Of a DNA stretch of 64,000 nucleotides, positions 7,297 through 47,125 are shown piece by piece. The DNA comes from Candidatus Parcubacteria bacterium. GTDB lineage: Bacteria; Patescibacteriota; Minisyncoccia; Phycocordibacterales; UBA918. The DNA lies in contig JAKFXN010000005.1 of assembly GCA_021731405.1 (NCBI GenBank), forward strand, positions 105,892-169,891, read 5' to 3'. The notes beneath the pieces were generated by a model. It saw only the letters and a program-made list of their open reading frames with translations. It was not told the origin of the DNA and ran no database searches. How positions within the stretch are numbered: the first letter of the stretch is position 1; each line of letters begins with the position of its first letter. The position numbers and the translations under genes are program-made.

Positions 7297-8052
7297 CTAA
7301 GCACCGAAGAACGATTTTGCCAGAATAATTGAGAAATCGACAAAGTTCATTTTTCCATCACTATTGAAATCATGGGTCAGGGTTTTACTATTCCAAGCAA
7401 CCATAAAAGCACTGATGTCTCTCAGGGTTACTTTACCGTCACCATCTATGTCTGCAGTAATATTGACTCCTAGGTTGGCAGAAATAGCGCTTGGGTCTTC
7501 ATCTTGGTCATATATGTAAAAACTTTGCTTTGAGGCGCTACCAGTACCAGAAACAGCAACCGGGGTTCCTCTTCCGTCACCAGCCAAGAGCTGGGCTTCG
7601 CGGACAAAAAATTCTGTGTTGCCACTCACTTTCGCTTGAGCTTTAATGGTGGCAATGAGATGTTCTCCCACAAAGCCTCGTCTAAATGTACCTCCGCCGA
7701 GAGTGATGGTTGATCCTTCAACAATGGGTTCTTGTGTCCAAACTGTTAGCACCGACTGTGCTTTGTCCACTGAAACAACCTCTACTTTATCTGGTGAAAA
7801 ATCAATCGTGATATCGATTGCGTTTACAGGAACATGTGCAGAGGCATAAATATCAATTGAAAAGCGCTCTCCTTCCATCACTGCAGTTTGGGACGGCTCT
7901 AATCGAATATAGGACTTGTCAGTAGAGACGACAGACGCACTCAGGACTGCAAATACACCTAGTACCAGTGGAAACATGTACTTCACTGTCAAACCATCCT
8001 GAACTGGTCTTTCAGGCCTAAATATCCTAAAAAGCGCTTTCAAATAGTTCAT
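7297..8052 (-). CDS. Small secreted protein with an N-terminal cohesin-like beta-sandwich and a C-terminal type-I dockerin (two DxDxDG Ca-binding loops).
   Basis: C-terminus DIDGDGKVTLRDISAFMVAWNS...DFNSDGKMNFVDFSIILAKSF matches the duplicated F-hand dockerin pattern. The N-terminal region is paralogous to the cohesin-like domains of 8762-10489, 10493-11569 and 42786-44360. Confidence 0.65.
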   Translation of the reverse strand: MNYLKALFRIFRPERPVQDGLTVKYMFPLVLGVFAVLSASVVSTDKSYIRLEPSQTAVMEGERFSIDIYASAHVPVNAIDITIDFSPDKVEVVSVDKAQSVLTVWTQEPIVEGSTITLGGGTFRRGFVGEHLIATIKAQAKVSGNTEFFVREAQLLAGDGRGTPVAVSGTGSASKQSFYIYDQDEDPSAISANLGVNITADIDGDGKVTLRDISAFMVAWNSKTLTHDFNSDGKMNFVDFSIILAKSFFGA

Positions 8053-8761: not shown

Positions 8762-10489
8762 TTATACCAACTGTTCAACGTCATCAACTTCCTTTTCAAC
8801 CCGTGTTTGCGCTCCTTTAAGAGCGCCGCTGAGTGAGACAAACATATCCTCTTCTGCTTTTGAGAGTTTTTTAGTCTTTTTTGCTTGAGTGAGACGCTCT
8901 TGTTCTTGACCCAAGACCTCATGTAGGTGAGCAAATTCACGCGCCAAAATAACAAGAGCTTCTTGTGATTCGGTAGAAACTCTACCTTTAAACCGGCGCA
9001 TGTATGCAACAAGGAACCACATAGATAAAACAAGTAGTACGAGCATTGCTAGAAGCGGAATTACCACTGACAGAATGTTTATGAGGAACGTTCCTATTTG
9101 GACATATCCAGGTTGCTGGACAGCAATTCGTATTGTCTCAGAAGTCTCTGATTGGGCACCAAACTCATCAATTGCTTTTGCCGTAAGTTCGTAGACACCT
9201 TGTGTGAAGGTGCCTTCAGGAATCAAAGTAAAGACTCCCGAGTCGTCAGCTGTGAGATTGTAGAGAGTCGGCTCAGCTCCAATCTTTTGGACACTCACTT
9301 CTACCTGCGCCCGTGGTCTTGTGAGTCCGCGCACTACTGGAATCACTTCTTCATTTATTTCATTTGGATATTCCGTGAATGTTGGCTTATCAAACGCTGA
9401 AAGTGTCAGTGAGAATGAACTTACGGTACTATTTCCAGCTCTATCGAAGGCCTCTACGATAACTGAATGTAGGCCTGGATCAAGTTCCTTCAGCTCAATT
9501 TTCTGCTCATTTTTTTCATCCAAAAATTCATAGGCTTCTTCATTATCAATTTTTATTGCATATCGGTTCACTCCAGAAGCACTGTCTTTCACTTGTACCA
9601 AAAGAGTCTGTTTTGGATTTGAAAGATCAGCTCCTTCTGGTAAGCTCAAGGCGAGTTCAGAGGGTGCTTCTGTATCTACCGCTAACCGATAGTGACTCAC
9701 TCTACCCCACCCGTCTTCATTTCGAAACTGAAGGTGAAAATATGACTCTCCTTCTGGTAAGTCGTTAAGTGTAATGGTAGAAATTGGTGTCTCGTACACG
9801 CGAGTCGGAACTGAACTTGGTGACTCATCAAGCAGCGTTCGTACTGAGGTTACTCCTGCAGGCAGCGTCCATGACAGTACAGCATTCTTTGTTTTATACC
9901 AACCTTCTCTATCGCTGTGTGTACTTGATTCAATTTGCGGAGCTCCTGGAGTATTTGCCGGAGCCACATATTCAACTACCTCGGGTGTTGGAGAGGTGGA
10001 AGGGGCTTGAATAGTGTACGTGCCACCGTTCATACTAGAGAGCACATTGGTACCCATTCCGTCATTTGCCAGCACTGCTCCTCCAGTCAAAGTAACTCTA
10101 GCAGTGCTGGCATTAGTAGTTCTGAAAGTAATATTAAAAACTGTTCCCGATGAACCGGTGTAGCCAGTTGGAAGCCCTCCACTGAAAGTTACCGTGCCAG
10201 CAGAATTTGAAAAACTAGGTTCTGTCACCCAAAGACTAAAAATGGAGTTAGATCTATCAACAGACACCACTGTGACTTCTTGTGGATTAAATTTTATGGT
10301 TCCTTCAGCAGCATTGATAGATTTTCCAGCAGAGTTTACTACTACTCTGGCAGTAAAGGTTGCCCCGGCAGAATACACACCAGTGGCCGGCGACATAGAC
10401 ATCGTGGCAGCAGACGATACTGCAGGCAGCAGCAAACTTAGAAGGGTGATTCCAAAAAATACGTAGGTGTTGCGGAGGGAAAGTGACAT
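8762..10489 (-). CDS. Anchoring-scaffoldin-like surface protein: signal peptide, cohesin-like domain, Ig-like/FN3-like domains, a C-terminal TM helix and a charged coiled-coil cytoplasmic tail.
   Basis: N-terminus MSLSLRNTYVFFGITLLSLLLPAVSSA then ATMSMSPATGVYSAGATFTARVVV...FSLWVTEPSFSNSAGTVTFSGGLP (cohesin-like). TM LINILSVVIPLLAMLVLLVLSMWFLVAY followed by the basic/acidic tail KKLSKAEED...VEKEVDDVEQLV. Confidence 0.65.
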   Translation of the reverse strand: MSLSLRNTYVFFGITLLSLLLPAVSSAATMSMSPATGVYSAGATFTARVVVNSAGKSINAAEGTIKFNPQEVTVVSVDRSNSIFSLWVTEPSFSNSAGTVTFSGGLPTGYTGSSGTVFNITFRTTNASTARVTLTGGAVLANDGMGTNVLSSMNGGTYTIQAPSTSPTPEVVEYVAPANTPGAPQIESSTHSDREGWYKTKNAVLSWTLPAGVTSVRTLLDESPSSVPTRVYETPISTITLNDLPEGESYFHLQFRNEDGWGRVSHYRLAVDTEAPSELALSLPEGADLSNPKQTLLVQVKDSASGVNRYAIKIDNEEAYEFLDEKNEQKIELKELDPGLHSVIVEAFDRAGNSTVSSFSLTLSAFDKPTFTEYPNEINEEVIPVVRGLTRPRAQVEVSVQKIGAEPTLYNLTADDSGVFTLIPEGTFTQGVYELTAKAIDEFGAQSETSETIRIAVQQPGYVQIGTFLINILSVVIPLLAMLVLLVLSMWFLVAYMRRFKGRVSTESQEALVILAREFAHLHEVLGQEQERLTQAKKTKKLSKAEEDMFVSLSGALKGAQTRVEKEVDDVEQLV

Positions 10490-13366: not shown

Positions 13367-14497
13367 TTATCCGCTCCAATTAAACAGCAAAATAGAAAAG
13401 TCCTCAATACTCACCCTCCCGTTACCATTTATATCCGCAGGAGGATTAGAGTTTCCTCCGTCTGTCTGCCACCAGAAAATCAAAATAGAAAAGTCGATTA
13501 GGTTTACTCGTCCGTCACGATTGAGATCTGAAGGAGTAGTTACCTGTCCATCAACGCCAACAAAAAGTTGTAGGGTGGAACTAAAACTACTTTGTGTAGT
13601 CAATTGTCCGGTCCCCGTAACCGAACGAGCCCGAAGGGTATGCGGAGCAACTGAGAGTGAGGCGGTGTTTAAAGTAAGACTCCAATTTCCCTCCGCGTTT
13701 GCCGTGGTGCGTTCTATAGTTGAGCCTGTATCTATATGTACTTCTATTCCTGCGCTAGGAATAGATTGTCCACTTACAGTCACTATGTCTCCCGGGTTTA
13801 CGTTTTGGTTTGGAACACGAATAGTCGGCGGCAAAATAACACCAGCAATATTTGTAACCGCACCCTGCGTCACATCAAAGGTAGTGTTGAGAGTAATTGA
13901 GCGAGTCCCTGCAACGTCTGTGGCCCAAAAGCCAAGTGAGGCGGTGCCTGGTGAAGCGTCGGTAGTAAAATCAAATCTTCCTGCCCCATTGGCGCGTACA
14001 CTACCGACTGTTTCTGAGTCAAGAATTATATTGATAGTACGGCCAGGGTAGGCGAGGCCCGTGACACTTATGATAGTATCTCCCAGTTCAGTGGTACTTC
14101 CTCCGCTACCACCACTTCCTCCTCCCGAGCTTCCTCCTCCTCCCGAACCAGCTGGTTCAACCTGACAAATTGCTGAACAAAAGTCTCCATTGTCATTATT
14201 ACCATCATCACATTCTTCAGAGAATTGTGTCTGTAAAATTCCGTCCCCGCAATACGGACCAAAATTACAAATAGTGCTGCACTGTCGTCCAACTATAGTT
14301 GTACTATACACACCAGTCTCACCTGGAGCATCACACTGCTCACCATCGTCTACAAGTGCATTACCGCAGATACTTAAACTAAGGGTGGTTGATGCTGTAC
14401 CTGCAAAAAAAGTTTGTGCGAAAGCGACCTCCCCTTGGAGTAGTAGGAGTACAAGGCAAGAAAGTAAATAGAAAGTAAATCTCATAAGTCTATCCAA
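13367..14497 (-). CDS. Secreted dockerin-bearing protein: N-terminal Cys-rich repeats of the Myxococcus-type CGDG...CDDGN...C pattern, a Gly-rich linker, two Ig-like domains and a C-terminal type-I dockerin.
   Basis: YCGDGILQTQFSEECDDGNNDNGDFCSAIC repeat. C-terminus DLNRDGRVNLIDFSILIFWW...DINGNGRVSIEDFSILLFNWSG (two dockerin segments). The C-terminal half is paralogous to that of 45148-47058. It overlaps the upstream gene by 8 nt. Confidence 0.7.
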   Translation of the reverse strand: MDRLMRFTFYLLSCLVLLLLQGEVAFAQTFFAGTASTTLSLSICGNALVDDGEQCDAPGETGVYSTTIVGRQCSTICNFGPYCGDGILQTQFSEECDDGNNDNGDFCSAICQVEPAGSGGGGSSGGGSGGSGGSTTELGDTIISVTGLAYPGRTINIILDSETVGSVRANGAGRFDFTTDASPGTASLGFWATDVAGTRSITLNTTFDVTQGAVTNIAGVILPPTIRVPNQNVNPGDIVTVSGQSIPSAGIEVHIDTGSTIERTTANAEGNWSLTLNTASLSVAPHTLRARSVTGTGQLTTQSSFSSTLQLFVGVDGQVTTPSDLNRDGRVNLIDFSILIFWWQTDGGNSNPPADINGNGRVSIEDFSILLFNWSG

Positions 14498-15455
14498 CCT
14501 GTCGGCGAGAAAGACGTCTGTTGTAAATGAAATACAGAACGAGGATCAAAAGTGCAAAGATTGGCAGCAAGATTGAGATCTTATGCGGGACCGAGAGTCC
14601 ACTAAAGCCAAAGCCTGCTTGTTGTAGTGTGCCGTACGGAAGAATACTGAGACTAACTTCCCCTTCTTGCTTAACTTCATCGCCATTATAAATACTGTAC
14701 CGCGCAATATAGTTTCCGGCTGGAAGACGAGTTGGAATCTCAGCCAGTACTTCTTCAGTTGCGTAAGGAGCAATCTCAGTTATACGTCCCTTATGATCTG
14801 TTTCTTCAAGGAGAACATTTCCAGCGAAGTCAAAGATTCTAAATGCAACACGTGAAGGTGAAATATCTACGTTACCAGTGTTTTCGATTAACATAGTGAA
14901 ATTAATCTTTCCAGGGAAATACAACCAACCAAGTTTCTTTCCTTCATTCAAATCAGAAAGTCCAATTTTACGTACTCGAAAATCTTTTATTTCTCTATCA
15001 ATAACAGTGAGACCTATATCAACCTGCGCACCAAGTGAAATACTCACCGCACCAGCAGCTACTTGATCATCATCAGGTACAGTCTTGATTCTAATGACAC
15101 CTTTATAGTCTTTGAATTCAGCGTCATCAGGAACCGTTACTCGGACAGTCATTGGTACTTTCTGTACGCCTCGTGGCAATGGCACAGACTCTCCTTCTAC
15201 AATCTGGATCCAGTCCATGATTTCGGGAGCGTCCACGCTAATTTGGGCCTTCTGGGGCACATCAGGATTACCGCGCACCAACAAAATCTGTTGTTCGTAA
15301 GTGGAGTTTCGAGTCAGGCTCGTATTGCGTACATATGGTGGCGTAATACCAAAACCCGCTCGCACTATCTCAGTTGAGAGCACAAAAAAAAGCAGGCAGA
15401 TGGAAATAACCTTCTTCATATAAACAATATCGAGTACATCTCTTGCACTCTCCAA
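14490..15455 (-). CDS. DUF916-like cell-surface protein with an N-terminal signal, Ig-like ectodomain and a C-terminal TM plus basic tail (ends ...LVLYFIYNRRLSRRQVG).
   Basis: N-terminal GFGITPPYVRN...ILLVRGNPDVPQKAQISVD resembles the start of DUF916 proteins from lactobacillus/enterococcus WxL loci, recalled from memory. The C-terminus has LPYGTL then a hydrophobic stretch and an RR tail. Paralog of 51829-52974. Confidence 0.5.
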   Translation of the reverse strand: MESARDVLDIVYMKKVISICLLFFVLSTEIVRAGFGITPPYVRNTSLTRNSTYEQQILLVRGNPDVPQKAQISVDAPEIMDWIQIVEGESVPLPRGVQKVPMTVRVTVPDDAEFKDYKGVIRIKTVPDDDQVAAGAVSISLGAQVDIGLTVIDREIKDFRVRKIGLSDLNEGKKLGWLYFPGKINFTMLIENTGNVDISPSRVAFRIFDFAGNVLLEETDHKGRITEIAPYATEEVLAEIPTRLPAGNYIARYSIYNGDEVKQEGEVSLSILPYGTLQQAGFGFSGLSVPHKISILLPIFALLILVLYFIYNRRLSRRQVG

Positions 15456-15464
15456 TTATCGAAA

Positions 15465-15515
15465 ATAAATCAATAAAAAGCAACAGCCACTGTATGGATA
15501 ACAATGGCTGTTGCG
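15465..15515 (-). terminator. Hairpin plus U-run downstream of 15543-17405.
   Basis: CAACAGCCA...TGGCTGTTG 9-bp stem. On the minus strand it is followed by CTTTTTATTGATTTATTTT. Confidence 0.55.
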
Positions 15516-15542
15516 TCGATATTCTGTGTTGTGGTATGTAGT

Positions 15543-17405
15543 CTACCAGTCTGTACTACTTGAGGTCACGGCGTAGAAGGTGTTTAGCCCTGTGTAGGCA
15601 CCAGCTACAGTAATCGCGATCGGTACTTCAATTCCCCAGTACGTTACACCTGAGTTAGGTGATGAGGTGGCTGTGGTCTTTGGTACTTTGAGCTCGAGGA
15701 GCTGTTGTGTTGTAGAAGAAAGATTGTATCCACTTCCGTACGCAACAGAACTTGTTCCGAACTCTTGTTGGTAATCTGGAATAGTTGAAGAAGCACTGTT
15801 TGCACATGGACTTCCCACCGCAAATCCTGGACACATCGCCTCACCTTCAAGTTCTTGGTTGAGCCCGGTGTTACCTACCGAGAGAACAGTTGTCGTTGCG
15901 TCGAGCGTTCCGGTGTTGTCTCCTGGTTCGAGTGATCCATATGGAATTTCTCCTGTAATCAAGTCAATGGCTGGGAAACTAAGGAGAGTCACTGGACTTG
16001 AGCCAACTGTTCTTGTTCCAGTAGCGTTGTTGTCATCGATACCAGCAATTGCTGCTACCCAATCATCGGCAGCAAATGGAGAGATAACGTCTGTTGGTTC
16101 AGCAACGAACCAGAGTGGGAATGTGCAAGACCAAAGTTGAGTTGGGTCTGATGGTCCACCACAACTAGTGGTAGATGCTGTACATGAGAGGTTCCAGACG
16201 TTGCTTGGGGCTCCACTTGGATAACAGTTGTTTGGATTGTATGAGCCGGCAAGACCAGAACAAGTTGATGTTCCAATACTACTTCGGTAAAGAGAGACTA
16301 CATATCCGACCATCTCGTCACCTCCAAGAGCATTTTCGCAACTGTTGGCATCGGAAGTTTCAAAGGCGAGTGGGAAGTTTAGAGTTTCTCCCGCTTCTAC
16401 CGTGAGTGAGATGTTTAATCCTCCGTTGACTGAGATACTTCCCGCAGCCACTGTTGGCGCTACGTTGCTTACCACAAAGCCATCATTTTCACCTTGAGAT
16501 CCACCTACTGCTGTGTGTCCATGGTTGTCTACAATGAAGCCGTAAGCATCAAAAGTATCATCTTGGATAACGCTTGGAAGAGTGAATGCCGCTGTAGCGT
16601 TTGCAGTTACTGGAACAGTAGTGGTAGCGATAGTTCCGCCGATACCACAACTTGCTGTTGTTGTACTGTAGTCGTTTGCATTACAGACATGCAGTGTAAG
16701 CACGTCTTCTCCACCAACAACGTCAGGGTCAGTTGAAGTTGAGAAGAAGGTTACAACGGCTCCAGGGTTAGCTGGTGAGTTGTTGTAGAAAGATGTAAAG
16801 CTTGGTCTGAAGTTTACATGGAAAGGAGAAGAGTTAGTTGCATTAGTACCTTGAGAACTTACGTCATTACAACGTGGGTTCACAGGATCGTCGTCACATA
16901 CCCAACCATACCAGTTGTTGCTTTCAGCAAACGGTGCGACTTCTGATGTTGTGGTTGCGACCCGGGCTTGCGCAAGAGCAGCTGTGGCGGTAGAGACTCC
17001 CCACTGCACTCCACCCACACACTCTGGCGGCTCAGTACCGAGCGTACCGAGACTGGCTGCAGCGTTTGGCGTCGGTGTAGCACTGCCACTACAGATAATC
17101 AAGAAATACGGCGCATTTCCAGAGTTGTCAGCCCGAGCTGTCCACGAGACTTGTCTTCCTGAGTTAGTCGGTGTGCTGGTTGAAGATTCAAACTCTTCTA
17201 CAGCAAAATCAATCCAAATCGGAGGAGTGTTGAGTACGGTCAGTGTCGTAGTTGCGGTCTGTGCTTCTACTTTTAGGAGCTCTGTTTTTCCTGCGTTAAA
17301 GAGGAACACGAAGGCAAAAATGAGCACTCCAGAAACAGCAGCCGCAATGGTGATTTTGCCTGCAGTTTCTAGGTAATTAAATTTCTCTACTTTGTTGTAC
17401 AACAT
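15543..17405 (-). CDS. Secreted 620-aa protein with an N-terminal signal anchor. It is a paralog of the C-terminal ~500 aa of the giant protein, including the shared YWGI(E/A)VP C-terminal domain.
   Basis: C-terminus SGVTYWGIEVPIAITVAGAYTGLNTFYAVTSSSTDW against the giant protein's TDVYWGIAVPFTASNAAHTGTNIFTAIGID. The upstream 100 aa also align (IPYGSLEPGDNTGTLDATTTVLSVGNTGLNQELEG against INYGALSGDSDTGSFNPTTTITNLGNTPINVDVEG). Confidence 0.65.
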   Translation of the reverse strand: MLYNKVEKFNYLETAGKITIAAAVSGVLIFAFVFLFNAGKTELLKVEAQTATTTLTVLNTPPIWIDFAVEEFESSTSTPTNSGRQVSWTARADNSGNAPYFLIICSGSATPTPNAAASLGTLGTEPPECVGGVQWGVSTATAALAQARVATTTSEVAPFAESNNWYGWVCDDDPVNPRCNDVSSQGTNATNSSPFHVNFRPSFTSFYNNSPANPGAVVTFFSTSTDPDVVGGEDVLTLHVCNANDYSTTTASCGIGGTIATTTVPVTANATAAFTLPSVIQDDTFDAYGFIVDNHGHTAVGGSQGENDGFVVSNVAPTVAAGSISVNGGLNISLTVEAGETLNFPLAFETSDANSCENALGGDEMVGYVVSLYRSSIGTSTCSGLAGSYNPNNCYPSGAPSNVWNLSCTASTTSCGGPSDPTQLWSCTFPLWFVAEPTDVISPFAADDWVAAIAGIDDNNATGTRTVGSSPVTLLSFPAIDLITGEIPYGSLEPGDNTGTLDATTTVLSVGNTGLNQELEGEAMCPGFAVGSPCANSASSTIPDYQQEFGTSSVAYGSGYNLSSTTQQLLELKVPKTTATSSPNSGVTYWGIEVPIAITVAGAYTGLNTFYAVTSSSTDW

Positions 17406-17510: not shown

Positions 17511-18719
17511 TTATTCATATCTAATCGCATCAAGTGGATTGAGGGTTGAAGCACGTCTGGCTGGGAAAACTCCTGTTAAGTACCCCACTCCAGCTGAGAA
17601 AAGAGCAATGAAGACCAAAAATACAATTGGGAAAGAGAAAAGTGAGACAGATTGTCCACCAAATTGACCCGCCACGATATTCAAAAATAGATTGACAGTA
17701 AGACCTAAGGCAACGCCCATCACAATTCCACTCACCCCACCCATAAAGCCCACCACAATAGACTCAGAAATAAAGAGGTTTTTTACGTCTTTTGGTGAAG
17801 CGCCAATTGTACGCATAATTCCAATTTCTTTTGTTCGTTCAAGGAGTGTAACTGTCATGGTATTAAACATACCAATAGCAGATACAATAAGTGCAATTCC
17901 GCCAAAGGTAGCCAGTACCGCTTGTACGCCTTGGAAAATCTTTGACGCCTGCTCCACAGTCTTTGAAAGTGCGGTTACTCGATAGCCAGCTTCAATAAGG
18001 CGAGCTTCAACAATCGGTAGATTTTCGTTTGAGTTCACACGAACTTGAATACGCTCATATTCTTCAATACCCACGTGATTGCGAAGCTCTGGAAGCATCA
18101 TCATGGCATTAAGAACACCTTCTTCTTTTGTAATACCACGTACGGTGTACTCTTTATCAATTGGAACCTCAACCACTGCGTCAGTCCCATCCTCAGCTGG
18201 TACAAGCAGTCTGAAAGATACTTTTTCGCCAACAAAAGACTCCGCTTCATCAATTCCGAAAAGCTTCAAAACAGCAGGGGAAAGCATTATGCTGTTTGTA
18301 TCACCAGCATCTTCATCAGTAAAAACAGTTCCTTCGGTTGCTGTTACTCCTGCATACCGTAGGTATGGAGGCTCAACACCTTGAATAAAGACGTTTCCGG
18401 TTAAACCTTTATAGGTAACGAGCGCAGGAAAGCGAGCCAATGGTGCAGCATCAAGAACCTCTTCATACTTTTTAAAAGTATCAACTGTTTCAACTGTGAG
18501 TTTGAGGTTTTGTGCACCTGTGGCAGAAACACCAAGTGAGAGAAGTGTCTCTCCAAACACAATCTGCTCAAGAATGATTTTTTGTAGACCAAAGCCGAGT
18601 CCAACCAGCACCACCACCGCTCCAGTTCCCACACCCATACCTAAAATCGTAAGCCACGTACGAAGTGGGTTAGTTTTAAACATTCGAGTTGAGAGTTGGG
18701 CTAGATCTTGAATTCGCAT
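17511..18719 (-). CDS. ABC transporter permease, FtsX/MacB-like, with an N-terminal TM, a large extracytoplasmic domain and a C-terminal 3-TM FtsX domain.
   Basis: 402 aa. N-terminal TM LRTWLTILGMGVGTGAVVVLVGLG, ~230-aa ectodomain, then C-terminal FtsX-like helices (ATFGGIALIVSAIGMFNTMTVTLLERTKEIGIMRTIGAS...). Immediately downstream of the ABC ATPase. Confidence 0.8.
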   Translation of the reverse strand: MRIQDLAQLSTRMFKTNPLRTWLTILGMGVGTGAVVVLVGLGFGLQKIILEQIVFGETLLSLGVSATGAQNLKLTVETVDTFKKYEEVLDAAPLARFPALVTYKGLTGNVFIQGVEPPYLRYAGVTATEGTVFTDEDAGDTNSIMLSPAVLKLFGIDEAESFVGEKVSFRLLVPAEDGTDAVVEVPIDKEYTVRGITKEEGVLNAMMMLPELRNHVGIEEYERIQVRVNSNENLPIVEARLIEAGYRVTALSKTVEQASKIFQGVQAVLATFGGIALIVSAIGMFNTMTVTLLERTKEIGIMRTIGASPKDVKNLFISESIVVGFMGGVSGIVMGVALGLTVNLFLNIVAGQFGGQSVSLFSFPIVFLVFIALFSAGVGYLTGVFPARRASTLNPLDAIRYE

Positions 18720-18797
18720 TAAATGAAATAATGAGCGTAGCGATTATATTGAATTTAGTTCCTAATTTTCTCCATTACTAGAGAAAATTACTGGAAC
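18719..18797. ncRNA. Conserved structured intergenic element, copy A (hairpin-motif family), lying between the ABC ATPase stop and the FtsX start codon.
   Basis: TTAAATGAAATAATGAGCGTAGCGATTATATTGAATTTAGTTCC-TAATTTTCTC-cattacta-GAGAAAATTA-CTGGAAC. The outer stem GTTCC/GGAAC and the 10-bp inner stem are shared with copy B, and the inner stem shows compensatory changes between copies. Confidence 0.5.
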
Positions 18798-18865
18798 GAC
18801 CCAACGCCCCTATTAAATGTAATTGTAACACTTCAAACTCTCAAAGAAACAAGTTTCCCCCGTAA

Positions 18866-20188
18866 CTAACTCTTGTAACTCACATCCACTCCTTGGGCGA
18901 TGATTTTTTCGAAGTAACGTGTAAGATCATCCGCTTCTTTTGGATCTAGTGCGAGTCCACCACCTTTTATACCAAGCATGAGACGTTCATTAAACTGCGC
19001 TTCCTCCACTACGCCAGTCACACGGTCGGCAATCATTTCAACCATGTTGTCATTTTGTTCTTTACTCAATTTCATATGGTAAGAACCCATTAGGTGGTCA
19101 CGTAACCGCTCAGCTAGTTTATGTTGGCTAAAAAAGATATCGTCGTTATCTTTTTTTGCTCTAAAACGCCTAATATCATCTGCTTGATGCATAAGTTTTT
19201 CGGCCACGTGTGCCATCCGCTTGGCTTCTTTTTCTTCAATCTCTACTCCACCTTGCTCAAGCTTGAGTACAAGCGCACGGATAAATGTGTCTTTGTCTAT
19301 TTTGCCTTTGATAAATAGGGCAATAGCATGCTCTAGGCGAATAATTTGGTCATAGGTGTACTCTTGGGTCAGGAAGTTAACCATACTCTTCACGCGAAGC
19401 GTATCAACTGAGTCGTAGGGATACAGACGAGCAAGTTGTTCAAGCTCAGTCACAATAGTCTCACCTTCGCGGACTGGTTTAATTTGTTTTCGCTGTGGGT
19501 TTACCACTTCTCGCACCACAAAGCCGTCTTTGAGATAATACACGCGGTGCGCATAGCTCAAGTGCGCAGCGTTATGAGACACCATAATAATGGTTCGTCT
19601 ATCAAACGTGTTAATTTCGTCAATCTTGTCCATTACCTGCTGCGTAGAAACCGAGTCGAGGTTTCCGGTTGGTTCATCTGCCAAGAGAATTTTTGGGTCG
19701 TTCACCATCGAACGAGCCACCGACACACGCTGCTGCTGTCCTCCAGAAAGCATGGCTGGGATTTTGTGAGATACATGCCCTACCCCAAAGCGATCAAGCA
19801 GTGACTGCGCACGACGTTCGCGTGTCACTCTATCAGCATCACAAAAAATCATTGGGAGCGCGACGTTGTCGAGTACTGAAAGGGAGCCAATCAGGTTGAA
19901 AGACTGAAAAATAATACCCATCACGTACCGTTGAAAATAAACACGTTCACTCGGTGGATATGAATAGATATCGTCTCCACGAATAAGGAGAGTGCCGTCT
20001 CCTGGGGGAAGCGAGCCCTGAATTGAATACATCAAAGTAGACTTTCCTGAACCTGAAGCACCGAAAAGAATGATGTACTCCCCTTCATAGATATCAGTAT
20101 TTACACCCTGAAGGGCTCTAAATTCATTAGATTTGCCTTTGTTGTAGATGATTGAAAGATCACGACAAACAATGAGTGGTTTCGCCAT
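18866..20188 (-). CDS. ABC transporter ATP-binding protein (MacB/LolD/FtsE-like NBD) with an unusual ~200-aa charged helical C-terminal extension.
   Basis: Walker [11 protein letters not shown]-loop, ABC signature LSGGQQQRV, Walker [14 protein letters not shown]-loop VSHN. The C-terminal part beyond the NBD is charged and helical (...[11 protein letters not shown]...[30 protein letters not shown]...) and has no match I recognise. Confidence 0.85.
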
Positions 20189-20248: not shown

Positions 20249-21748
20249 CTATACTCCAATGTTCTTAACCCAACCGAAGGTACTCTGGAAGTTTTCAAGA
20301 ATGAGGTCAATAATGTTTTTTTCTTGAATCGGTGTAAAGAGCACAAAGTTTTCCGACTGTGTCTTATTCCCTGCTTCGTCTTCACAGTTGAGCCAGAACT
20401 GATACACCGTTGCTGGCGCAAAGTCGACCACCACTTCTACATGCTTAGTATTGTACTCCACTCGCTCTTTTTCACGCACTGTTGGTTCACTTCCCCCGGC
20501 CACACCTTCGCGATACGTCATCAAACAGTAGGCTGGTTCATCAGAGACCCATTCAATAATAGTTTGAATTCTTGATTCTCCTCCTGGGAATAGCGTTGAT
20601 TCATTAGTTACGTTTGAAATAATTGGCGGAGCAATATCCCGTACAGTAATAAACTGAATTGGCTGACTGCGTACGCGGTCTCCGCCCGAGTTTTCTGAAA
20701 TTACAAAGGCCACGTACCTAGTACCAAGCGTCAAGTCAGCTAAACGCATCTGGTGTGAAGTAGCAAGCGTTGGACGTCCAACTGAGTTTTGCGCACCGGT
20801 TGTTTGGTCTTGGAATTCAATCAAGGCCTTAGCTGGTACCGTAGTGTCCCAAGCAAGCGTAGCAGCATTTTCTTCCACCTTGAGCACCCGTAGATTTCGG
20901 ATTTCTGGTAAAGAGGCTTTGGTGAGGAAAGTGAAGTTTCTACTTTCACCAGTAATATTTAACCCATCAGTTGAAAGGACTTTGAAGCTATACTCAGTAT
21001 AGGGTTCAAGTCCAATGATACGAATTTCGTGATCTGTTGTTGGTCCACCGGTTGAAGCCTGTGAATAGGCATAATTTGTACCATCAAAACTGGCTGAGGG
21101 TGAAAATTGTACCTCTGAGGAAGCTTCGCGGTCAGTCGTCCAACGCACAAGCGCTGTGGTTGTCTCTGGTATAACGGTTGGTGGACCAATAATTGTCAAA
21201 TCGGTAGTAATACCTTGAATCGCTTCCACAACTTCAGTTAAGATTTCCTGCAGTTGCTGGGGGCTGGTGATTTGATTTATTTGTTCAATAATTTCTTCTA
21301 CGGTTGGCGTCGGCGTAGCCGATTGAGAAGTAGTTGAGTCAGATGATGATTGTCCTTGCCCAGGACCATCGCCAGTTTGTGGAGTACCACTCATTTGCAC
21401 CTTATAGTCTGCAGAAATACCTTGGTTGCCATCTTCATCAGCAGAAATCACCCGAAAGTAATAGACCCGTCCAGCTTCGAGATTCTCGAGAGTGATCGAG
21501 TGCACAGTTTTGTCAGGGACAGGAATACGAACAATGCCTAAGTCAGGCTGTAGACCATAGTTTACAACTGAGTCTGAATCTTTATCAGTTTCCCATGTCA
21601 CCGTAAGTGAATCTTCAGTCACGTTTTCAATCTGTACATTACTAATTTCAGGGGGGTCTGTTGATTGAGCAAAAGCTATCTGGGCAGCAATAACTACTCC
21701 GACAGTAAAGAGTAGCGAGAGTATTTTATAGGTAAGAACATTCCTCAT
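20249..21748 (-). CDS. Secreted protein with multiple fibronectin type III-like domains and a Pro/Thr/Gly/Ser linker. Lies immediately downstream of the giant gene.
   Basis: Signal peptide MRNVLTYKILSLLFTVGVVIAAQIAFAQS. FN3-like SNVQIENVTEDSLTVTWETDKD...RVYYFRVISADEDGNQG, repeated after the linker (LRVLKVEENAATLAWDT...). Confidence 0.65.
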   Translation of the reverse strand: MRNVLTYKILSLLFTVGVVIAAQIAFAQSTDPPEISNVQIENVTEDSLTVTWETDKDSDSVVNYGLQPDLGIVRIPVPDKTVHSITLENLEAGRVYYFRVISADEDGNQGISADYKVQMSGTPQTGDGPGQGQSSSDSTTSQSATPTPTVEEIIEQINQITSPQQLQEILTEVVEAIQGITTDLTIIGPPTVIPETTTALVRWTTDREASSEVQFSPSASFDGTNYAYSQASTGGPTTDHEIRIIGLEPYTEYSFKVLSTDGLNITGESRNFTFLTKASLPEIRNLRVLKVEENAATLAWDTTVPAKALIEFQDQTTGAQNSVGRPTLATSHQMRLADLTLGTRYVAFVISENSGGDRVRSQPIQFITVRDIAPPIISNVTNESTLFPGGESRIQTIIEWVSDEPAYCLMTYREGVAGGSEPTVREKERVEYNTKHVEVVVDFAPATVYQFWLNCEDEAGNKTQSENFVLFTPIQEKNIIDLILENFQSTFGWVKNIGV

Positions 21749-21768: not shown

Positions 21769-24700
21769 CTAATCAATACCGATAGCAGTAAAGATGTTGG
21801 TACCCGTGTGTGCGGCGTTACTAGCTGTAAACGGAACCGCGATACCCCAATACACATCAGTCTCTACTGGAGGAGTCACAACACTTGGCTTGCTGAGGTT
21901 AAGTCCAAGTACAACGGCACTACTTGATGAGAGCTGCTGGCAAGTAACACAGGCGTTGTAGGTGAAAGTTGAGGTAGCAACTTTCTGTTGATCAGCTGGA
22001 ATAGCTGAAGATTCACCGTCAGTTAGATCAGTTCCTTCAACATCAACGTTGATTGGTGTGTTGCCGAGGTTTGTGATGGTGGTAGTTGGGTTAAACGAAC
22101 CAGTGTCAGAGTCTCCTGAGAGAGCGCCGTAATTTATGACAGAATCCACTGCCATCGCTCTTAGAGTAATGAGTTCTACTCCAATAGCGGAGGCAAAATC
22201 ATAGCCTTCACTAGAATCTTCTGCCTCAGCGTAAGCTTCCCAAGTTTGTCCTAAATATGGCTCCTCGTCTGTTGCATCCGCATGGAAGAAGATATCAACT
22301 TCACAAGACAGATCACAACTGTTTCCAACACAGTTAGTGAGCGTACATTGACCATTTTCAGTTGTAGCTACGTAACAGTTGTTGTTATCTGGTGTACAAG
22401 TAGGACCAGCCCCACTGCGGTAAATAGTAGCTGTCGCATGAATGATGTCAGAAGCACCATTGAAGTCAGTGACAATACCCGAAACAGTAACTGGCGTAGT
22501 TGTACCTGGAGTAAGATTTATATCTCCTCCACCATTAAGTGTAACTGCACCAAAGGTTGGGTCAAATTGAAGTCCTAGTTCAGCAATTTTAGCGTAAAAG
22601 TCCAGTGGAGTTCCATCGTTTGTGACTCTGAAGCAGTAGTCATCTGAAGCATTACTTGTTGGGGTCAGTACATACTCGAGTTCAGTGTAGAAGTCTTGAT
22701 CTAAGTCAGTCGCAGCTGTTTGACTCGAAGGACTCTCAACAATTGAACCCTCACTAAATGTTCCTTCTGTACCAGTGAGTAAATCAGTAGCAGGGTCGCC
22801 ATTTGTGACAAAAGTAGAGGCTTGCATACAAACAGGAGAACTGCCACAAGATGCTTGGTTTGGCACAGTAGCATATGAAGCACTGTTGACAGACTCACAA
22901 GTAGGGGCTGCTCCCTTAGCAGCAAACTCAAGTCGGTACTGTTGAGCAGTCACATCGAGACCTGAGTTTTCAACCGCCAACCTTAGACGAACAATGTCAC
23001 CTGGGATAGCTGTTGTAATTCCATCTAAACTAGAGGCCCAACTTGCACCACCATCGGTCTGCTTTGCACCAAGGAAAACAGTTGGAGTAGTAGCTATTCG
23101 GGCCCGTGAGGTAAAGCTGTCCCAAGCTCCGTTCTGGAACCAGAAGGCATATCCAAATCCGCCAGAAGTGTAGTTGGCGTCAGTGGCAGAAGTAGTCGCA
23201 ATGAGGGTGCCGGCACTATTAAAGAGTGATACTTCCATTAAGTCACTTGTCTGCCAGTCAATTTCTACTTCATACCAACCAGTTGTGTATGTGACTGTAG
23301 TGGTGGCAAGTACAACTCCCGAAGTATCATTATTGTCTACATCTCGAGCGAGAGAAATTCTATCTACCCCGAACTGCTCAAGACAAACGCCGTAATTTTG
23401 GTTTGTTGTTCCTGGCGACTGCACTCCAAAAAGTGTACAAGGTTCATCTCCACTACCACCCGAAGTGTTTACATATTGCATGTAGCGAATTATTTCACCT
23501 TGAGTCACCGGATCATCAAAGCGGAAAATACCGTCCGTCGTCTTTCCGCTTGGATTTGAAGGTGCAAGCGACCGCGCTCCGCCATAGACTGGAGTTGTAA
23601 CAGTGGTAAAGAGACTGGTGTCTCCTGAATACTCAGAGATAGAAGCGTCTTCATAATCATCAAATGCATTCATGGTACTTGTTCCACTACTTTGTGACAC
23701 AGCTGTAGAGCTTCCATAATACATAAACACCGTTGCATAATCGCTTGCTGGCAATGTTGGGACTCGCACCCAAATCTGTGCGTCGGTACTGGCAGTGTAC
23801 CTTTCTATCCAGAACGGAATTTGTGTTTGCCCGTTATCGCTCGTGAAGCGAATATCTTCAAAGTCTGATTGCATTGAACTATCGTACGGAACAATCACCT
23901 TAACGGCGGTTGAAGCATATGCTTGGTTGTCGTTATTAAGTACTCGCACTCGTGTCCGATAATCAAAGCTGCTATTAAACCACTCTGTAGATGGTGCACC
24001 TTCTCCACCATCATCATTTCGCCAGCGAACGTGTGTTTGTTCGGTGAGGAGACAAGAGCTGTTATCAAATCGGATTGAGCCACAAGCATCAATGCCATCA
24101 ATGTCGAATCCTTCTCCGCCAATATTTCCATAGTTGTTGGTAAAGCGCCACGCGTTTGCAGTCTCGCCAGTGAGATTTATGTTATAGCCCGTAAGTGGCC
24201 CTGTGGCATTAAAACCTACGGCGTCAAATGTTTTTGAAGGATTGGCGTTGAGGGTGGTTGAAGAAAGTGTGACCGCAGAACCAGAAGCCACGGCGATATC
24301 GAAGTATCCGTTCGATAGTTCATCAATAGTAGACAGACCACTTAACTGAAGACCAAACACATTCATATCACCAAACTCATAATAATTGGCATTGAGAGTT
24401 CCTCCGGTCACGGCAAAGTTATATGTTCCACTACCTTGATTTTGCATGATAGTTGAACTTCCAGATGTTCCTACAATCTGAAGCGAGCCAGTAGTGACCG
24501 TCGTAGTTGCATTTGGCGCAAACGAGACCGTTACTTTTCGTTGATTACTGCCACTGAGTACCGTTCCGTCAAAGTCGTTACTGTAATTCCAGTACTCAGT
24601 AGTGGTGGCGATTTGTAGATCTCCGTACACATATAGCGCCCCGTTAGTGTTTGCGTGGTCTTGTGAGTACAACGAACCAGAAAGCGCAACGGTTGTAGTA

Positions 24701-27700
24701 GCAGCACTACTGTACCAACTTCGAATGTCAGTGTTGGCATCGATACTGATAGTACCGTACACGTCTCCACTGTTTGAGCGGGTATTAATACTGTAACCAG
24801 ACTGACTGATTAGTCTGAGAGTTGTGTTTGTCCAAGTAGTACCCGCTCCACCAACTGAGTTTGTGAACACACCTCCGACCGTGATGACCGCTGTAGGATT
24901 TACGGTAAGAATATTCGCACTGGCAATAGTGAGGTTGTTTGTCGTAGTGGCACTAAAGAGTGTATACCCACCACTTGGTGCACCAAACTGAAGGTTATAG
25001 AACGGGCTAGTGCCAGGATTTACTGTAAGACCGGCTGAAGCAGAATTGAGGAGGACTGTTCCACTTGCACTGGCAAATGTACCGCCTGTTGCTACAAATG
25101 AACCTCCGACTGCAGTTGTACTTGCTCCAAGGGCGACACTGCCACTGGCAATAGTAAATGAATCCAAGAACGTAATGTTTGCGTCAGTAATGGTGAAAGC
25201 TGCTGGTCCAACAAATCGAACTGCGTACAAATCTGAAGAACTAGCGGTCAAAACAGCGGTACTGGTTGCTGTCATGATAAGGTCGGAAGTATTGTGCGTC
25301 ACGGTACCGGAACGTTTCTCGAAGCTGCCTCCAATAGCAAAGTTTCCGCTTGGAAGCGTCACGGTACTACCAGTAATCAAAACTGAACCAGTACTGGTGG
25401 CGTTTGTATCACTCATTGTGAACGAGCCACTGTTTGTGAATCGGAGGGAAGACACAACTGAATTGTTGAAACGAACAGTATTACCGCCAGAGGTACTTGT
25501 GAAGACAAATGGGCTACCGCCATTGGTAAATGAACCAGAGGTGACATTAAATGATGCGCCAATGGTTGTCGTACCTGACCCAAATGTAACTGCACCATTT
25601 GATTGTGTGTAAGAGCCACCAAGTGTGAGCGTAGCGTCAGTCACCACGTAACTGCCCGATCCAGAAACAGTAAGGTTGTGTAATGCTGCACTATTTACAT
25701 CAAAGGTTCTACTGGCACCAGTTGTAGTGAGGGTTAGAGTTGAACTGGCACCTACAAACTCCGCTCCTGTACCAAAGATGACACTACCGCCGATGCTATG
25801 AGCTTCAGTTGTTTTTGCTCTAAATCGAGCGTTTGTCTGAGCTTCAAGTGTTCCATCATACGCCGCTCCAGCACCAGCACCAGCAAGGGTTACGTTTCCG
25901 TTTGGTTCAAATGTTTTTCCTGTCCAAATGAGAAGCTTCGTGTCAGCTGGTAGTGTGAGGGTGTCGGTACCTGTTGTTGTGGCAGTGAAATTAATATCTG
26001 AATCAAAACTAGAGTCCCACACAGCCATATTTGCAATGGTAATCGGATCAGTGTTTTCATGACGCACCACCACTCGATTGTGATACAGATGCATGTTACT
26101 GATTGAAGAAATTGGCGCCACACTCACTGTTGTTGCTTTTGGTGTCTCACCATTAATGAAGAGTGTCAGTGTATCAAGTGGACTAAAAGCAACTCCACTA
26201 ATACTGTAGGCACCTGTACCTGCGTTACAACTTGTGTTGTATGTCGTAAGACCGGCCACCACCAGACGAATATTATTGGTAGAACCGTCACAAACGGTTG
26301 ATACCGTAACTCCTTCATCACTGTATACGTTTCCTGCCACGGTAATAAGCGCAGCTGAGTCGTCCCATACCACATAGCCAGGGTCGCCTGCTGGATCATC
26401 ATCAAAGGCTTCTCCACTTATGTTTCCAAGGTGGTTTGTAAAGCGCCATGAACTTATTGTTGTACCAGTTGCAGTTACGTTTTTAGCACCCGTTACTCCG
26501 CCACCAGCTTCAAACTTGTTGTTAGTGAAGTTCTTTGCTTCGTTTGCATTTATAACAGTGCCCCCTACCGTAATTGCGCTACCACTGTTGATACCAACCA
26601 AATGATCAGTTCGAGAAAAATCAGTGACTGTTGGCGCACCAGCAAACACAACTCCGTTACTATTAGTATCGCGAACTTGAACCGTGTCAAACTGAACTGT
26701 CGACCCTGTACCGAAAGTGATTCCATAGGTACCACTTCCTTGATTTTGAATCGTTGTGGTAGCTGAAGGTGTCCCCACAGCTACAATTGAACCGCCTGCC
26801 CACAAAGCACTAGCACCGCTGGCGAAGTATATTTCCGCCTGACGTTCACTACCGCCAGTGAGGTTAGTACCATCGAAGTCTGTGGAGTAACTCCAGTAAT
26901 CATTTCCGGTGGTTCGTACCAGCTGACCCCAGATATACGCGTCACCATTTACTCCTGCATGGTCTTGAGAGTAGAGCGAACCTGTTGCGTTTACCGCATA
27001 AGAAGAAGCGCTAGAATTCCACATTCGAATTTGTGTGCCGGCCGCAATAGCGAGGTTGTTATAGACATCGTTTGTAGTTGAAGCATTAATTGAGTATGTT
27101 CCCGAACCAGTGAGGAGAAGAGTTGAAGTTCCCCAGTTTGTTGCGGCTCCACCAAGTGTGTTGGTGAATTGTCCACCAACAGAAAGCGTTTGTCCATTGT
27201 TTACGTTAAACGCACTATGATTTGTGAGTGTAAAGGCGTTGGTCGCAGTTGCATGTGAGTTGAGAGAAAACGTTCCTGTTCCATCTATAACTACATTACT
27301 AAAGCTTGAAGAACCGGCATTTATGAGCGAAGTGGTTGAGCCGGTAAAACGAACTGTTCCACTATTGCCAACAAAAGTACCGAGATTGGTGTAATCTCCG
27401 AGAATAGTTAGATTGGCACTATTGCTTGCTTGTAGTGTGCCATTATTCTGAATAACTACGTCGCCACGCACTTCTACCACGGGATCGCTTGTATTGGCGG
27501 TAAAAGTTGATGTGGCACTACCACCAATGATAAGGTCGTTGTACACAAGAATTCCAGAGCCTGTACCAGTGTATGTTGCGGAGCCAGCGCCAGCATTGAG
27601 TACAAGGTTGTAGTAGTTGATGGACGGCACATTAGCTGTAGCGCCACTAAACCGCAGAGTACTGGTGTCCTCAAGGAACGTTCCAGTTCGCACAAGCACG

Positions 27701-42785: not shown

Positions 42786-44360
42786 TTACTTCAGAATTGC
42801 CTTTACATCATTGATTTCCTTTTCAATCAAGGTCTCTGAAACTTCGAGTGCTTGATTGAGTCCTTCCACTGCTTCTCGCTCACTTTTTGACAATCGCTTT
42901 CGTTTAGTAATCATGTTTACTTGGTCATAGATTTCATCTCGCAGTGCTGAGAAAATTTTCTCCATTTGATCTTGAACCTCACGTGTTTCTCGACGCAACT
43001 TCTCTTCTTTTATCTTAAGTTGTTTTCTTTCATACCAGATAAATATTGCCATCAAAAGGATAATAACAAAGAGGAAGAAGATGAGTAGGTTGCCGGGAGT
43101 CAAGAACGACCAGAAAGATTCTTCTTCAAGCACCTCAGCTGGTTTTATCCAGCCAGCCGTGATGAGTACCGCCTTGTTACTCTCTCGAATATTTCCAGCC
43201 TTGTCATGTGCAACTACTTTTACCGTGTAGGTGCCATCTTCAAGTTCACCAAGCAAATATCCGAGCAGTGCTTCATCTGGAGTTACTCTAAATGGCTCCT
43301 TGTCTGCAATCGTAAGCTCATAGAAGTCTATGCCTGAAATTTTATCTATCGCTTCAAATACAAGGAGTGGGAATGACGACGGTGTACTGCCAGTTCGTAC
43401 GCCAATTTCAAATGGTTCTGGAGGAATGGTATCAATCTGAAGTTTTCGATTGAGCGTTACTCCCCAACCAACTTGGTTCTTAAATCTAATACTAAGATAC
43501 TGTACTCCATCGACAATGATGTCTTTTGTGATTCTGAATTCATCTACTGGCGGTTCGAGTACTGAATCGGGATTGAGACTCGGATCGTTTTCACTTGAAG
43601 TTGCCATTTCTATTGCAACTGCATTTACGTCAAATGGTAGTGTCCAAGTAAATAGTCCTTCAGTAGTGTTGTACCACACTTCAGGGTCAAGGAAGGCTGG
43701 TGAGCCAACTTCTGGAGCACGTGGCGGATCTCCGAAAATAAGCGCTTCTTCACTATCATCTTCTTCATCGGGCTCTGGCGTATTTGGGGTAGGTGTTGGT
43801 GTCGGAGTTGGGGTAGGTGTTGGTGTCGGAGTCACAGCAGCTCCAATGGTAAAGTTGCTTGGGGAGGAAGTCTGATATACGTCGGTGCCGCGACCGTCTG
43901 CCGCTAGTACTGAAGCAGCACTAAAGCTAACAGCGGCTGTTCCTGCTTTTAATGTTCGAAACGTTACATTGATAAGGTTCGAGGTTGCAGAAAATGGGGC
44001 TGGGCTACCACCTCCGAAGCTTACGGTACCGGCTGTATTAGAAAAGGTTGGCTCTACAGTCCAAAGTGAGAAGGCGGAACCATCTTTTGTGATACTCACA
44101 ACTGAGAGAAGTGTTGGGTCAAACTTGAGAGTAGCCTCAACTGCATTAATGTTTTGACCGGCAGGTAGCACGCGTACCGCAGCGGTAAATGTCTGCCCTC
44201 CAGTATAAGAGCCCGTGCTTGGGTTCAATTGCAAAGTGGCAGCACTCGCAGTAAGTGCGCTCAAGAAAAATAGTACACTTACCGCAAGCAGACACAGAAG
44301 CTTTACAGCCACTTGTTCAACTTTATTATGTAAATGAATGTGTAACATACGTGATTTCAA
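42786..44360 (-). CDS. Anchoring-scaffoldin-like protein: signal, cohesin-like domain, (TP)n linker, Ig-like domains, a C-terminal TM and a coiled-coil cytoplasmic tail. Paralog of 8762-10489.
   Basis: ATLQLNPSTGSYTGGQTFTAAVRVLPAGQNINAVEATLKFDPTLLSVVSITKDGSAFSLWTVEPTFSNTAGTVSFGGGSP then TPTPTPTPTPTPTPNTPEP. TM LIFFLFVIILLMAIFIWY. Tail ...KRKRLSKSEREAVEGLNQALEVSETLIEKEINDVKAILK is conserved with the tail of 8762-10489. Confidence 0.65.
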   Translation of the reverse strand: MKSRMLHIHLHNKVEQVAVKLLCLLAVSVLFFLSALTASAATLQLNPSTGSYTGGQTFTAAVRVLPAGQNINAVEATLKFDPTLLSVVSITKDGSAFSLWTVEPTFSNTAGTVSFGGGSPAPFSATSNLINVTFRTLKAGTAAVSFSAASVLAADGRGTDVYQTSSPSNFTIGAAVTPTPTPTPTPTPTPTPNTPEPDEEDDSEEALIFGDPPRAPEVGSPAFLDPEVWYNTTEGLFTWTLPFDVNAVAIEMATSSENDPSLNPDSVLEPPVDEFRITKDIIVDGVQYLSIRFKNQVGWGVTLNRKLQIDTIPPEPFEIGVRTGSTPSSFPLLVFEAIDKISGIDFYELTIADKEPFRVTPDEALLGYLLGELEDGTYTVKVVAHDKAGNIRESNKAVLITAGWIKPAEVLEEESFWSFLTPGNLLIFFLFVIILLMAIFIWYERKQLKIKEEKLRRETREVQDQMEKIFSALRDEIYDQVNMITKRKRLSKSEREAVEGLNQALEVSETLIEKEINDVKAILK

Positions 44361-47058: not shown

Positions 47059-47125
47059 CTTATCTATAAGTATACCCCGCACAAATACAAACAATATGTC
47101 TGGTCGTGAACAACTTGTAACTCTT

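Follow-up and report, generated by a model that had tools for sequence, protein, structure and literature searches.

In a 64,000-nucleotide stretch of Candidatus Parcubacteria bacterium DNA (contig JAKFXN010000005.1, positions 105,892 to 169,891; hereafter the window), we analyzed the genes of an ATP-binding cassette (ABC) ATPase and its permease, which lie next to the genes of a giant surface protein and of a fibronectin type III (FN3) protein (Table 1). Judged from their sequences, the two products form a split type VII ABC complex of the MacB/LolCDE/FtsEX-like class, in which the ATPase carries an internally duplicated helical domain behind its nucleotide-binding domain (NBD) and the gene pair is accompanied by a characteristic FN3 end-piece. 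We infer that this complex is probably a mechanotransmitter specific to the candidate phyla radiation (CPR, Patescibacteria) that acts on surface proteins ending in the FN3 tail, while the ATPase extension would be a cytoplasmic module on a tether, used for regulation or docking.

The open reading frames delineated for the pair in the initial annotation, together with its description of a 440-residue ATPase bearing all canonical motifs, were reproduced (Table 1). Walker A (G43-T51, GASGSGKST), Q-loop (Q95), signature (L147-Q151, LSGGQ), Walker B (I167-E172), D-loop (L177-D178) and H-loop (H205) were all complete. Pfam ABC_tran matched aa 26-174 of the ATPase (E = 5e-31), and the NCBIfam NBD models, the best of which were DarD, LolD, FtsE and MacB, all scoring under their curated cut-offs, ended at approximately aa 217-242. 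Furthermore, a Foldseek search with the full-length ATPase model placed the NBD of Escherichia coli MacB (5lj9) at the top (38% identity, TM-score 0.95, root-mean-square deviation 1.4 Å) of a set comprising the NBDs of MacB, LolD, BceA, FtsE, Spr0694, YbbA and HrtA, each match spanning only about 225-230 residues of the ATPase (TMq ~0.5).

Beyond the NBD (aa 1-228), the ATPase continues for another 212 residues (aa 229-440), in good agreement with the roughly 200 additional residues noticed previously; the protein has one NBD only, with no second one after the extension. This extension gave no Pfam, NCBIfam or PDB-sequence match. The initial annotation had placed it outside the described ABC-associated domains, and ABC_tran_Xtn (PF12848), the domain named beforehand as the decisive one in this respect, was not detected at E ≤ 0.01 on the whole ATPase or at E ≤ 10 on 40 extensions. 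Pfam likewise gave no TOBE, NIL or CBS match in the extension, and the fold matches to MetN and PH0203 ran through the NBD only; the assignment of the extension to ABC_tran_Xtn, TOBE, NIL or CBS was ruled out by this absence of matches.

Structure prediction, which the initial annotation had proposed for this region, yielded a confident all-alpha model. Modeled alone by AlphaFold2 with a 70-sequence alignment, the extension was predicted to comprise nine helices preceded by 18 disordered residues, with a predicted local distance difference test score (pLDDT) of 84.2 and a pTM of 0.79, and the full-length ATPase modeled with a more diverse alignment (pLDDT 87.9) showed the same helices, with a dip to 57-75 at aa 231-260. 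The isoelectric point is approximately 6, and the earlier characterization of the sequence as charged and helical was thus appropriate. According to these models, the extension is a compact, confidently predicted domain and not a coiled coil. Foldseek found no PDB or BFVD match to its fold (best E = 0.88, TM-score 0.21); the cyclin and TFIIB fold matches, with TM-scores of about 0.2, were discarded as noise.

The extension was revealed to consist of a linker and a tandem duplication of a four-helix module of about 90 residues. When the two repeats were compared using hhalign, they aligned with an E-value of 1.2e-6 on the basis of close sequences, and with a probability of 99.4 and an E-value of 7e-22 over 80 columns on the basis of the diverse alignment, sharing the consensus L..Q..RLE..I..R..G.I....F...LD.P...GGVGL...TA......E. 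In repeat 1, the helices are predicted at approximately aa 248-255, 261-273, 279-293, 299-307 and 319-344 and the motif reads GKI....F...L......GGVEI...EA, while repeat 2 has helices at approximately aa 351-370, 376-391, 396-404 and 416-433, the motif G.V....F...L......GGLAL...EA and a conserved end. The linker had a pLDDT of 36-42 in the isolated model and 57-75 in the full-length one, and it is nearly invariant in the lineage of the window. Since the linker of the distant members is a charged, low-complexity stretch, the extension seems to be tethered to the NBD rather than rigidly packed on it.

When one genome per species was scanned, 102 relatives emerged, and 80 loci were kept. In the close Patescibacteria genomes, the ATPase shares 74-95% identity with that of the window, and the ATPase and permease genes are the best conserved of the locus. 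The ATPase has a single reading frame in the loci kept, with the exception of the frameshifted L012, always starts with MAKPLI, and is 440 residues long in 69 of the 77 loci that span the gene. The mean frequency of the most common residue per column was 0.94 in the NBD and 0.77 in the extension (77 genomes); the extension is nearly invariant in the close family at aa 229-280 and over its final 18 residues, and the 212-column alignment of extensions from 40 species contains not a single gap. Because the 440-residue frame is so consistently single and the alignment gapless, the extension is not a product of chance or an annotation artefact. The intact frame in nearly all scanned genomes also ruled out that the ATPase is a pseudogene or depends on programmed frameshifting or recoding.

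Several individual copies of the ATPase gene are disrupted, by single-base insertions outside homopolymers (L001 9520-10843; L002 9191-10519), by frameshifts (L005 9457-10768, where the permease is also missing; L012 9324-10642) or by a CAG to TAG nonsense change at Q57 (L004 2087-3409). Such copies may be pseudogenes of individual strains or may result from assembly errors. Queried with the extension, a large protein collection yielded 112 relatives, not one of which was full length and which were labeled Kaiserbacteria where named; neither of the two large collections returned a close-family member of the full length of about 440 residues, the close family being represented by fragments that begin at internal Met codons. 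This lack of full-length proteins is a property of the protein collections and not of the biology, and it misleads if read literally.

When a profile of the extension only was run against 1.84 billion representatives, 208 proteins were retrieved at E ≤ 1e-3, 85 of them also at E ≤ 1e-10. Complete members are mostly 425-460 residues long, with the domain at approximately residues 250-435 and ABC_tran as the only Pfam match, and all named members belong to Patescibacteria (Spechtbacteria, Uhrbacteria or "Patescibacteria group"). These searches indicate a widespread subfamily seen only in Patescibacteria, with 102 species-level genomes and 208 cluster representatives, and a duplicated module of about 90 residues that has no detectable relative outside this ATPase subfamily. 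We found no description of the module in CPR in the searchable literature. Some members add an N-terminal extension or long low-complexity tails: in certain distant ATPases (L087 6667-8778, P0174; L090 8001-10328, P0215; L088 8001-9767, P0210) there is a Lys/Glu-rich N-terminal extension of about 135 residues, or a Lys/Pro/Ser/Thr-rich low-complexity tail of 270-340 residues after the duplicated domain.

Permease identity was 69-95% in the 80 genomes and fell to 35-42% in distant lineages. Its MacB/FtsX topology with a large extracytoplasmic domain, as initially described, was substantiated by Pfam matches to MacB_PCD (aa 21-242, E = 1.7e-18, profile positions 1-205 of 207) and FtsX (aa 271-395, E = 1.1e-16) and by four hydrophobic segments at approximately aa 21-55, 261-293, 315-351 and 353-387. 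Type VII ABC permeases are defined by four transmembrane (TM) helices, with TM1 and TM2 enclosing a large extracytoplasmic domain made up of Porter, alone or together with Sabre (PMC5985334). Both this arrangement, with the external domain taken as one unit, and an NBD that has the ABC motifs and groups with the MacB/LolD/FtsE clade were found here. In type VII ABC systems, NBD closure driven by ATP shifts the stalk helices and external domains, and the complexes act on extramembrane targets without a transmembrane path for a substrate (PMC5985334). From this family membership, the pair presumably operates by mechanotransmission.

None of the best-known members of the class was recognized in the pair. 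With respect to MacAB-TolC, the two genes are separate, NF007826, for which the cut-off is 966, gave 165.6 and 89 bits, and no neighbor protein contains an HlyD/MFP adaptor domain. With respect to FtsEX, TIGR02673 scored 165.7 against 264.85, FtsX models gave 27-39 bits against 225-255 and covered the C-terminal TM part only, and hydrolase, LytM and CHAP domains were absent from the neighbor proteins. With respect to LolCDE, there is a single permease gene, and TIGR02211 and TIGR02212 scored 171.2 against 307.75 and 90.9 against 362.45, respectively.

The initial annotation had further linked the pair to the surface-protein genes upstream, and this was borne out in part. The order giant-FN3-ATPase-permease-620-321-376 (numbers denoting residues of the encoded proteins) is kept in essentially all of the 80 close-family loci, but the conserved neighbor is not the giant gene; it is the last FN3 domain with its tail. 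In about 98 of 100 evaluable loci, 76 of them close and 22 distant, the ATPase-permease pair is adjoined by this domain and the near-invariant tail (…IIDLILENFQSTFGW…), the tail being near-invariant across the 76 close loci and the adjacency persisting at 33-40% ATPase identity. Distant lineages have no separate giant DUF2341 gene, and the FN3-tail module is still adjacent, as in L086-L091. There, an FN3-containing protein of 1,152-3,058 residues is encoded directly upstream, often overlapping or 2-4 nucleotides off, and is followed by the ATPase and the permease; large protein and FN3 tail are joined in a single polypeptide in these lineages. The full 499-residue FN3 protein of the window aligned with the C-terminal 480 residues or so of distant upstream proteins of 1,152-2,658 residues, up to their very ends (E = 1e-33 to 1e-54), and the distant partners share the end motif …(V/I)(L/I)x(L/I)I(I/L)xNFxx(A/T)FG(W/F)xK in an amphipathic tail.

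The association also appeared in rearranged loci. In L092 and L093, the upstream genes are of the housekeeping type, and the permease gene is immediately followed by one for a 222-residue protein in which a TM anchor and a single FN3 domain precede the same tail. Scanning metagenomes with a narrower extension alignment (one distant subfamily) provided 21 further loci, of which 17 have an FN3-tail module that ends immediately ahead of the ATPase (17 of 18 evaluable), 3 are truncated by the contig end, and one (L115) has no such module. Since the FN3 tail adjoins the pair across close, distant and rearranged loci, the invariant unit comprises the FN3 tail, the extended ATPase and the MacB-type permease, and the giant gene is a lineage-specific elaboration or a split of the partner.

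In the mechanism that we propose, ATP binding and hydrolysis in the cytoplasm would be converted into movement of the external domain, with no substrate carried across the membrane. The external domain of the permease would engage the FN3-tail end-piece (…IIxNFxxxFGW…) of surface proteins exported by Sec, and the complex would thereby hold, release or reposition the C-terminal end of a large surface protein. By analogy with other ABC ATPases, the extension on its flexible linker would most likely dimerize, exert regulation or dock partners, gating the ATPase cycle from the cytoplasmic side.

Several points weigh against this proposal. Adjacency is the sole link between the FN3 tail and the permease, and the role of the extension is drawn from analogy only. 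Two distant lineages, L094/L095 and L115, lack an adjacent FN3 tail, and in the former the pair is flanked by secY and map where the ribosomal-protein operon ends (L094 7607-12714). A housekeeping function would likewise be compatible with the extreme NBD conservation (0.94). Finally, co-transcription in the window is not assured, because the gaps amount to 60 nucleotides between the FN3 and ATPase genes and 146 nucleotides between the ATPase and permease genes, and the second contains a perfect 10-bp hairpin (window 18763-18790, reverse strand; TAATTTTCTC, loop TAGTAATG, GAGAAAATTA) with no T-run after it. The corresponding medians in relatives are 190 and 29 nucleotides, the latter gap often being 1-5 nucleotides, and in distant lineages the FN3-protein, ATPase and permease genes nearly abut with operon-like spacing. 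A scan of the window for consensus promoters and terminators gave counts near the shuffle expectation and was uninformative.

Alternatively, the pair might be a housekeeping type VII ABC of CPR, acting for example in division, envelope-lipid handling or peptide resistance, with its position among surface genes due to operon hitch-hiking and the extension linking it to a core cytoplasmic process. The secY-map setting of L094, the missing FN3-tail neighbor in L115, the rank of NBD and permease as the most conserved products of the locus and the presence of hrcA-grpE-dnaK-dnaJ after the pair in L087 and L090 are consistent with such a role. It nevertheless leaves unexplained why the FN3 tail is adjacent in about 98% of the evaluable loci, down to 33% ATPase identity, and why this adjacency survives an altered gene order and a partner shrunk to 222 residues, and the FtsE, FtsX, LolD and LolCE equivalog cut-offs were missed by a wide margin; we regard this explanation as rather unlikely. 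Secretion of the giant or FN3 proteins through the pair, in the manner of a type I secretion ABC and as the initial annotation had envisaged among other possibilities for the giant protein, appeared highly improbable. Giant adhesins of Gram-negative bacteria are indeed exported by ABC-driven type I secretion systems, and the pair comes directly after the giant gene, but its permease has the four-TM MacB fold and not that of a six-TM ABC_membrane exporter, and type VII systems are described as lacking a transmembrane pathway for substrates (PMC5985334). Because the giant and FN3 proteins have N-terminal signals or anchors of their own, which like that of the 620-residue protein fit Sec export, and no adaptor is encoded nearby, passage through this ABC is not expected; a separate classical ABC exporter gene is, moreover, present at window 47126-48892.

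A further alternative concerns the extension itself, which might be a diverged form of a known helical domain, either TAFH/NHR1-like and peptide-binding or bL20-like and ribosome- or RNA-binding, that would attach the transporter to a cytoplasmic peptide motif or to the ribosome. For TAFH, the repeat profile hit PDB 2p6v at E = 0.024 and Pfam PF07531 was found in 5 of 40 members (best E = 0.013), both sub-threshold, and the fragment P0263 reached E = 8.4e-5 with 22.9 bits, below the gathering score of 27; the match, however, is confined to a single motif of 27-38 residues. For bL20, the profile of repeat 2 aligned with Staphylococcus aureus bL20 over 95 residues (E = 0.044), and one fragment had been labeled ElaB/YqjD ribosome-binding by JGI, but no other bL20 in the PDB was hit and Pfam Ribosomal_L20 was unmatched. 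Every one of these matches fell below curated thresholds and neither fold was found by Foldseek (best values as given above), so that we consider a diverged TAFH or bL20 domain very unlikely. Homology of the extension to bL20, with one weak PDB match and neither Pfam nor fold support, was rejected, and the recurrent TAFH similarity, like that to bL20, is a lead only.

Compared with known systems, the type VII ABC superfamily itself is established, and what is new is the internally duplicated NBD appendage together with the distinctive, conserved FN3-tail partner. The pair resembles MacB of MacAB-TolC and its Gram-positive relatives Spr0694-0695 and YknYZ in its best NBD fold match (5lj9) and in having the full MacB periplasmic core and FtsX C-terminal domains with four TM helices, and mechanotransmission is presumed to be common to both (PMC5985334). 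It differs from MacB in that its NBD is a separate polypeptide, no MacA/HlyD adaptor gene or outer-membrane duct accompanies it, the 212-residue duplicated helical extension is absent from every solved type VII NBD, and the partner is an FN3-tail surface protein. Like FtsEX with EnvC, PcsB or RipC, it would be a split type VII ABC that moves an extracytoplasmic partner rather than transporting it, with the ATPase as the control point; unlike FtsEX, its external domain is of the MacB_PCD type and not a small FtsX extracytoplasmic domain, and its partner is built on FN3 domains, lacks hydrolase and LytM domains and has a helical insert in some lineages only. LolCDE and YbbAP-TesA, which are among the top NBD and permease sequence and fold matches, act on a protein held at the external face of the membrane, and the same kind of action is proposed here for the FN3 tail, although the window has one permease gene instead of LolC and LolE, no lipoprotein or outer-membrane context, and an extension unique to its family.

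The closest precedent for a possible role of the extension is offered by importer ATPases. In MalK/ModC (TOBE), MetN (NIL/C2) and OpuAA (CBS), the NBD is followed by a domain that dimerizes beneath the NBDs, gating their ATPase activity. These additions are beta-rich or of the CBS type, have Pfam models and sit in importers and not in type VII systems, whereas the extension is predicted to be all-alpha, with a fold unrelated to theirs, is duplicated, has a flexible linker and matches no model. The LapD-LapG system, in which LapD is a cyclic di-GMP receptor and LapG a protease, controls the surface retention of the giant adhesin LapA from the cytoplasm outward, and the hypothetical likeness of the ABC pair to it is a functional analogy only, without homology.

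The features of the locus are summarized in Table 1. The genes of the 620-, 321- and 376-residue proteins show strict synteny in the close family only and are absent from the distant loci. An N-terminal hydrophobic signal or anchor is present on the giant, FN3 and 620-residue proteins alike. The 620-residue and giant proteins also share a similar ending (…YWGI.VP…TG.N.F.A), and in many loci the position of the 620-residue protein was matched at about 30% identity by tblastn with the last 1,000 residues of the giant protein (compare window 21769-24768).

Table 1. Features of the ABC pair and its surroundings (positions are those of the window; aa, amino acid residues).
Feature	Position	Strand	Description and basis
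Giant surface protein gene	21769-42672	-	6,967 aa; open reading frame call; Pfam matches DUF2341 and Ig_Rha78A_N only
FN3 protein gene	20249-21748	-	499 aa; signal peptide, four FN3-like domains, helical insert after the first; Pfam fn3/Pur_ac_phosph_N
FN3 protein C-terminal tail	20252-20341	-	aa 470-499, FVLFTPIQEKNIIDLILENFQSTFGWVKNIGV; putative handle for permease recognition, from sequence
ABC ATPase gene	18866-20188	-	440 aa and stop; open reading frame call
NBD of ATPase	19505-20188	-	aa 1-228; MacB/LolD/FtsE clade; Pfam, NCBIfam, Foldseek
Linker of ATPase	19448-19504	-	aa 229-247; conservation and low pLDDT
Helical repeat 1 of extension	19154-19447	-	aa 248-345; AlphaFold2 secondary structure, hhalign
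Helical repeat 2 of extension	18869-19153	-	aa 346-440; AlphaFold2 secondary structure, hhalign, conservation
Type VII ABC permease gene	17511-18719	-	402 aa, four TM helices; Pfam, hydropathy
Permease extracytoplasmic domain (TM1-TM2)	17940-18581	-	aa ~47-260; MacB periplasmic core domain; MacB_PCD match and TM bounds
Three lineage-specific downstream genes	13367-17405	-	Open reading frames, Pfam, synteny
620-aa protein	15543-17405	-	Paralogue of the C-terminus of the giant protein
321-aa protein	14490-15455	-	TM segments at both ends
376-aa protein	13367-14497	-	DUF4215/Big_6/dockerin

Two cohesin-domain proteins (window 8762-10489 and 42786-44360) flank the giant-gene locus, three dockerin-domain proteins (window 7297-8052, 13367-14497 and 45148-47211) are encoded around it, and the same flanking was observed in relatives. 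These genes suggest a surface complex assembled through cohesin and dockerin in a CPR bacterium that lacks obvious glycoside hydrolases. An HSP20 gene (window 44374-44838) and the classical exporter mentioned above, which has six TM segments (ABC_membrane and ABC_tran), are located upstream of the giant-gene block.

In individual relatives, other insertions and neighbors were noted. In L080 (7451-11694), a 4.2-kb cassette on the opposite strand, encoding a PAS histidine kinase and three receiver-domain proteins, separates the ATPase and permease genes; L082 has about 2.1 kb inserted at the same junction, and L067 and L057 have about 5.3 and 2.0 kb, respectively, between the FN3 and ATPase genes. 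A 936-residue protein with Hint/PT-HINT/intein-splicing domains is encoded directly after the permease in L086 (10813-13623), and in L094 the pair is followed by a gene for a 233-residue basic protein that lacks TM segments as well as FN3 domains.

CPR bacteria are mostly uncultured and tiny and are thought to live attached to other cells, and the prime candidates for recognizing the host are the very large proteins on their surface (for example, PMC13059738). For the question of how such proteins are handled at the membrane, the FN3 tail, the MacB-type permease and the extended ATPase provide a concrete candidate machine that is lineage-wide and tightly linked. The biology of ABC systems gains a type VII subfamily with a partner class defined by FN3 and a C-terminal tail and with an NBD appendage unseen in solved structures, and the extension constitutes a new domain family with a confidently predicted fold, which could be entered in domain databases. 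A more far-reaching version of the proposal, which we put forward tentatively and do not favor as it stands, is that the complex is an ATP-driven inside-out anchor and actuator of giant adhesins in episymbiotic CPR cells: the external domain or stalk helices might grip the conserved amphipathic tail (…IIENFxxxFGW) at the C-terminus of the FN3 end-piece and clamp, pull or release it by means of ATP, while the duplicated cytoplasmic module might read an intracellular signal or partner and decide when the adhesin is held, repositioned or shed. Such a mechanism, if true, would represent a novel means of control over the attachment to host cells.

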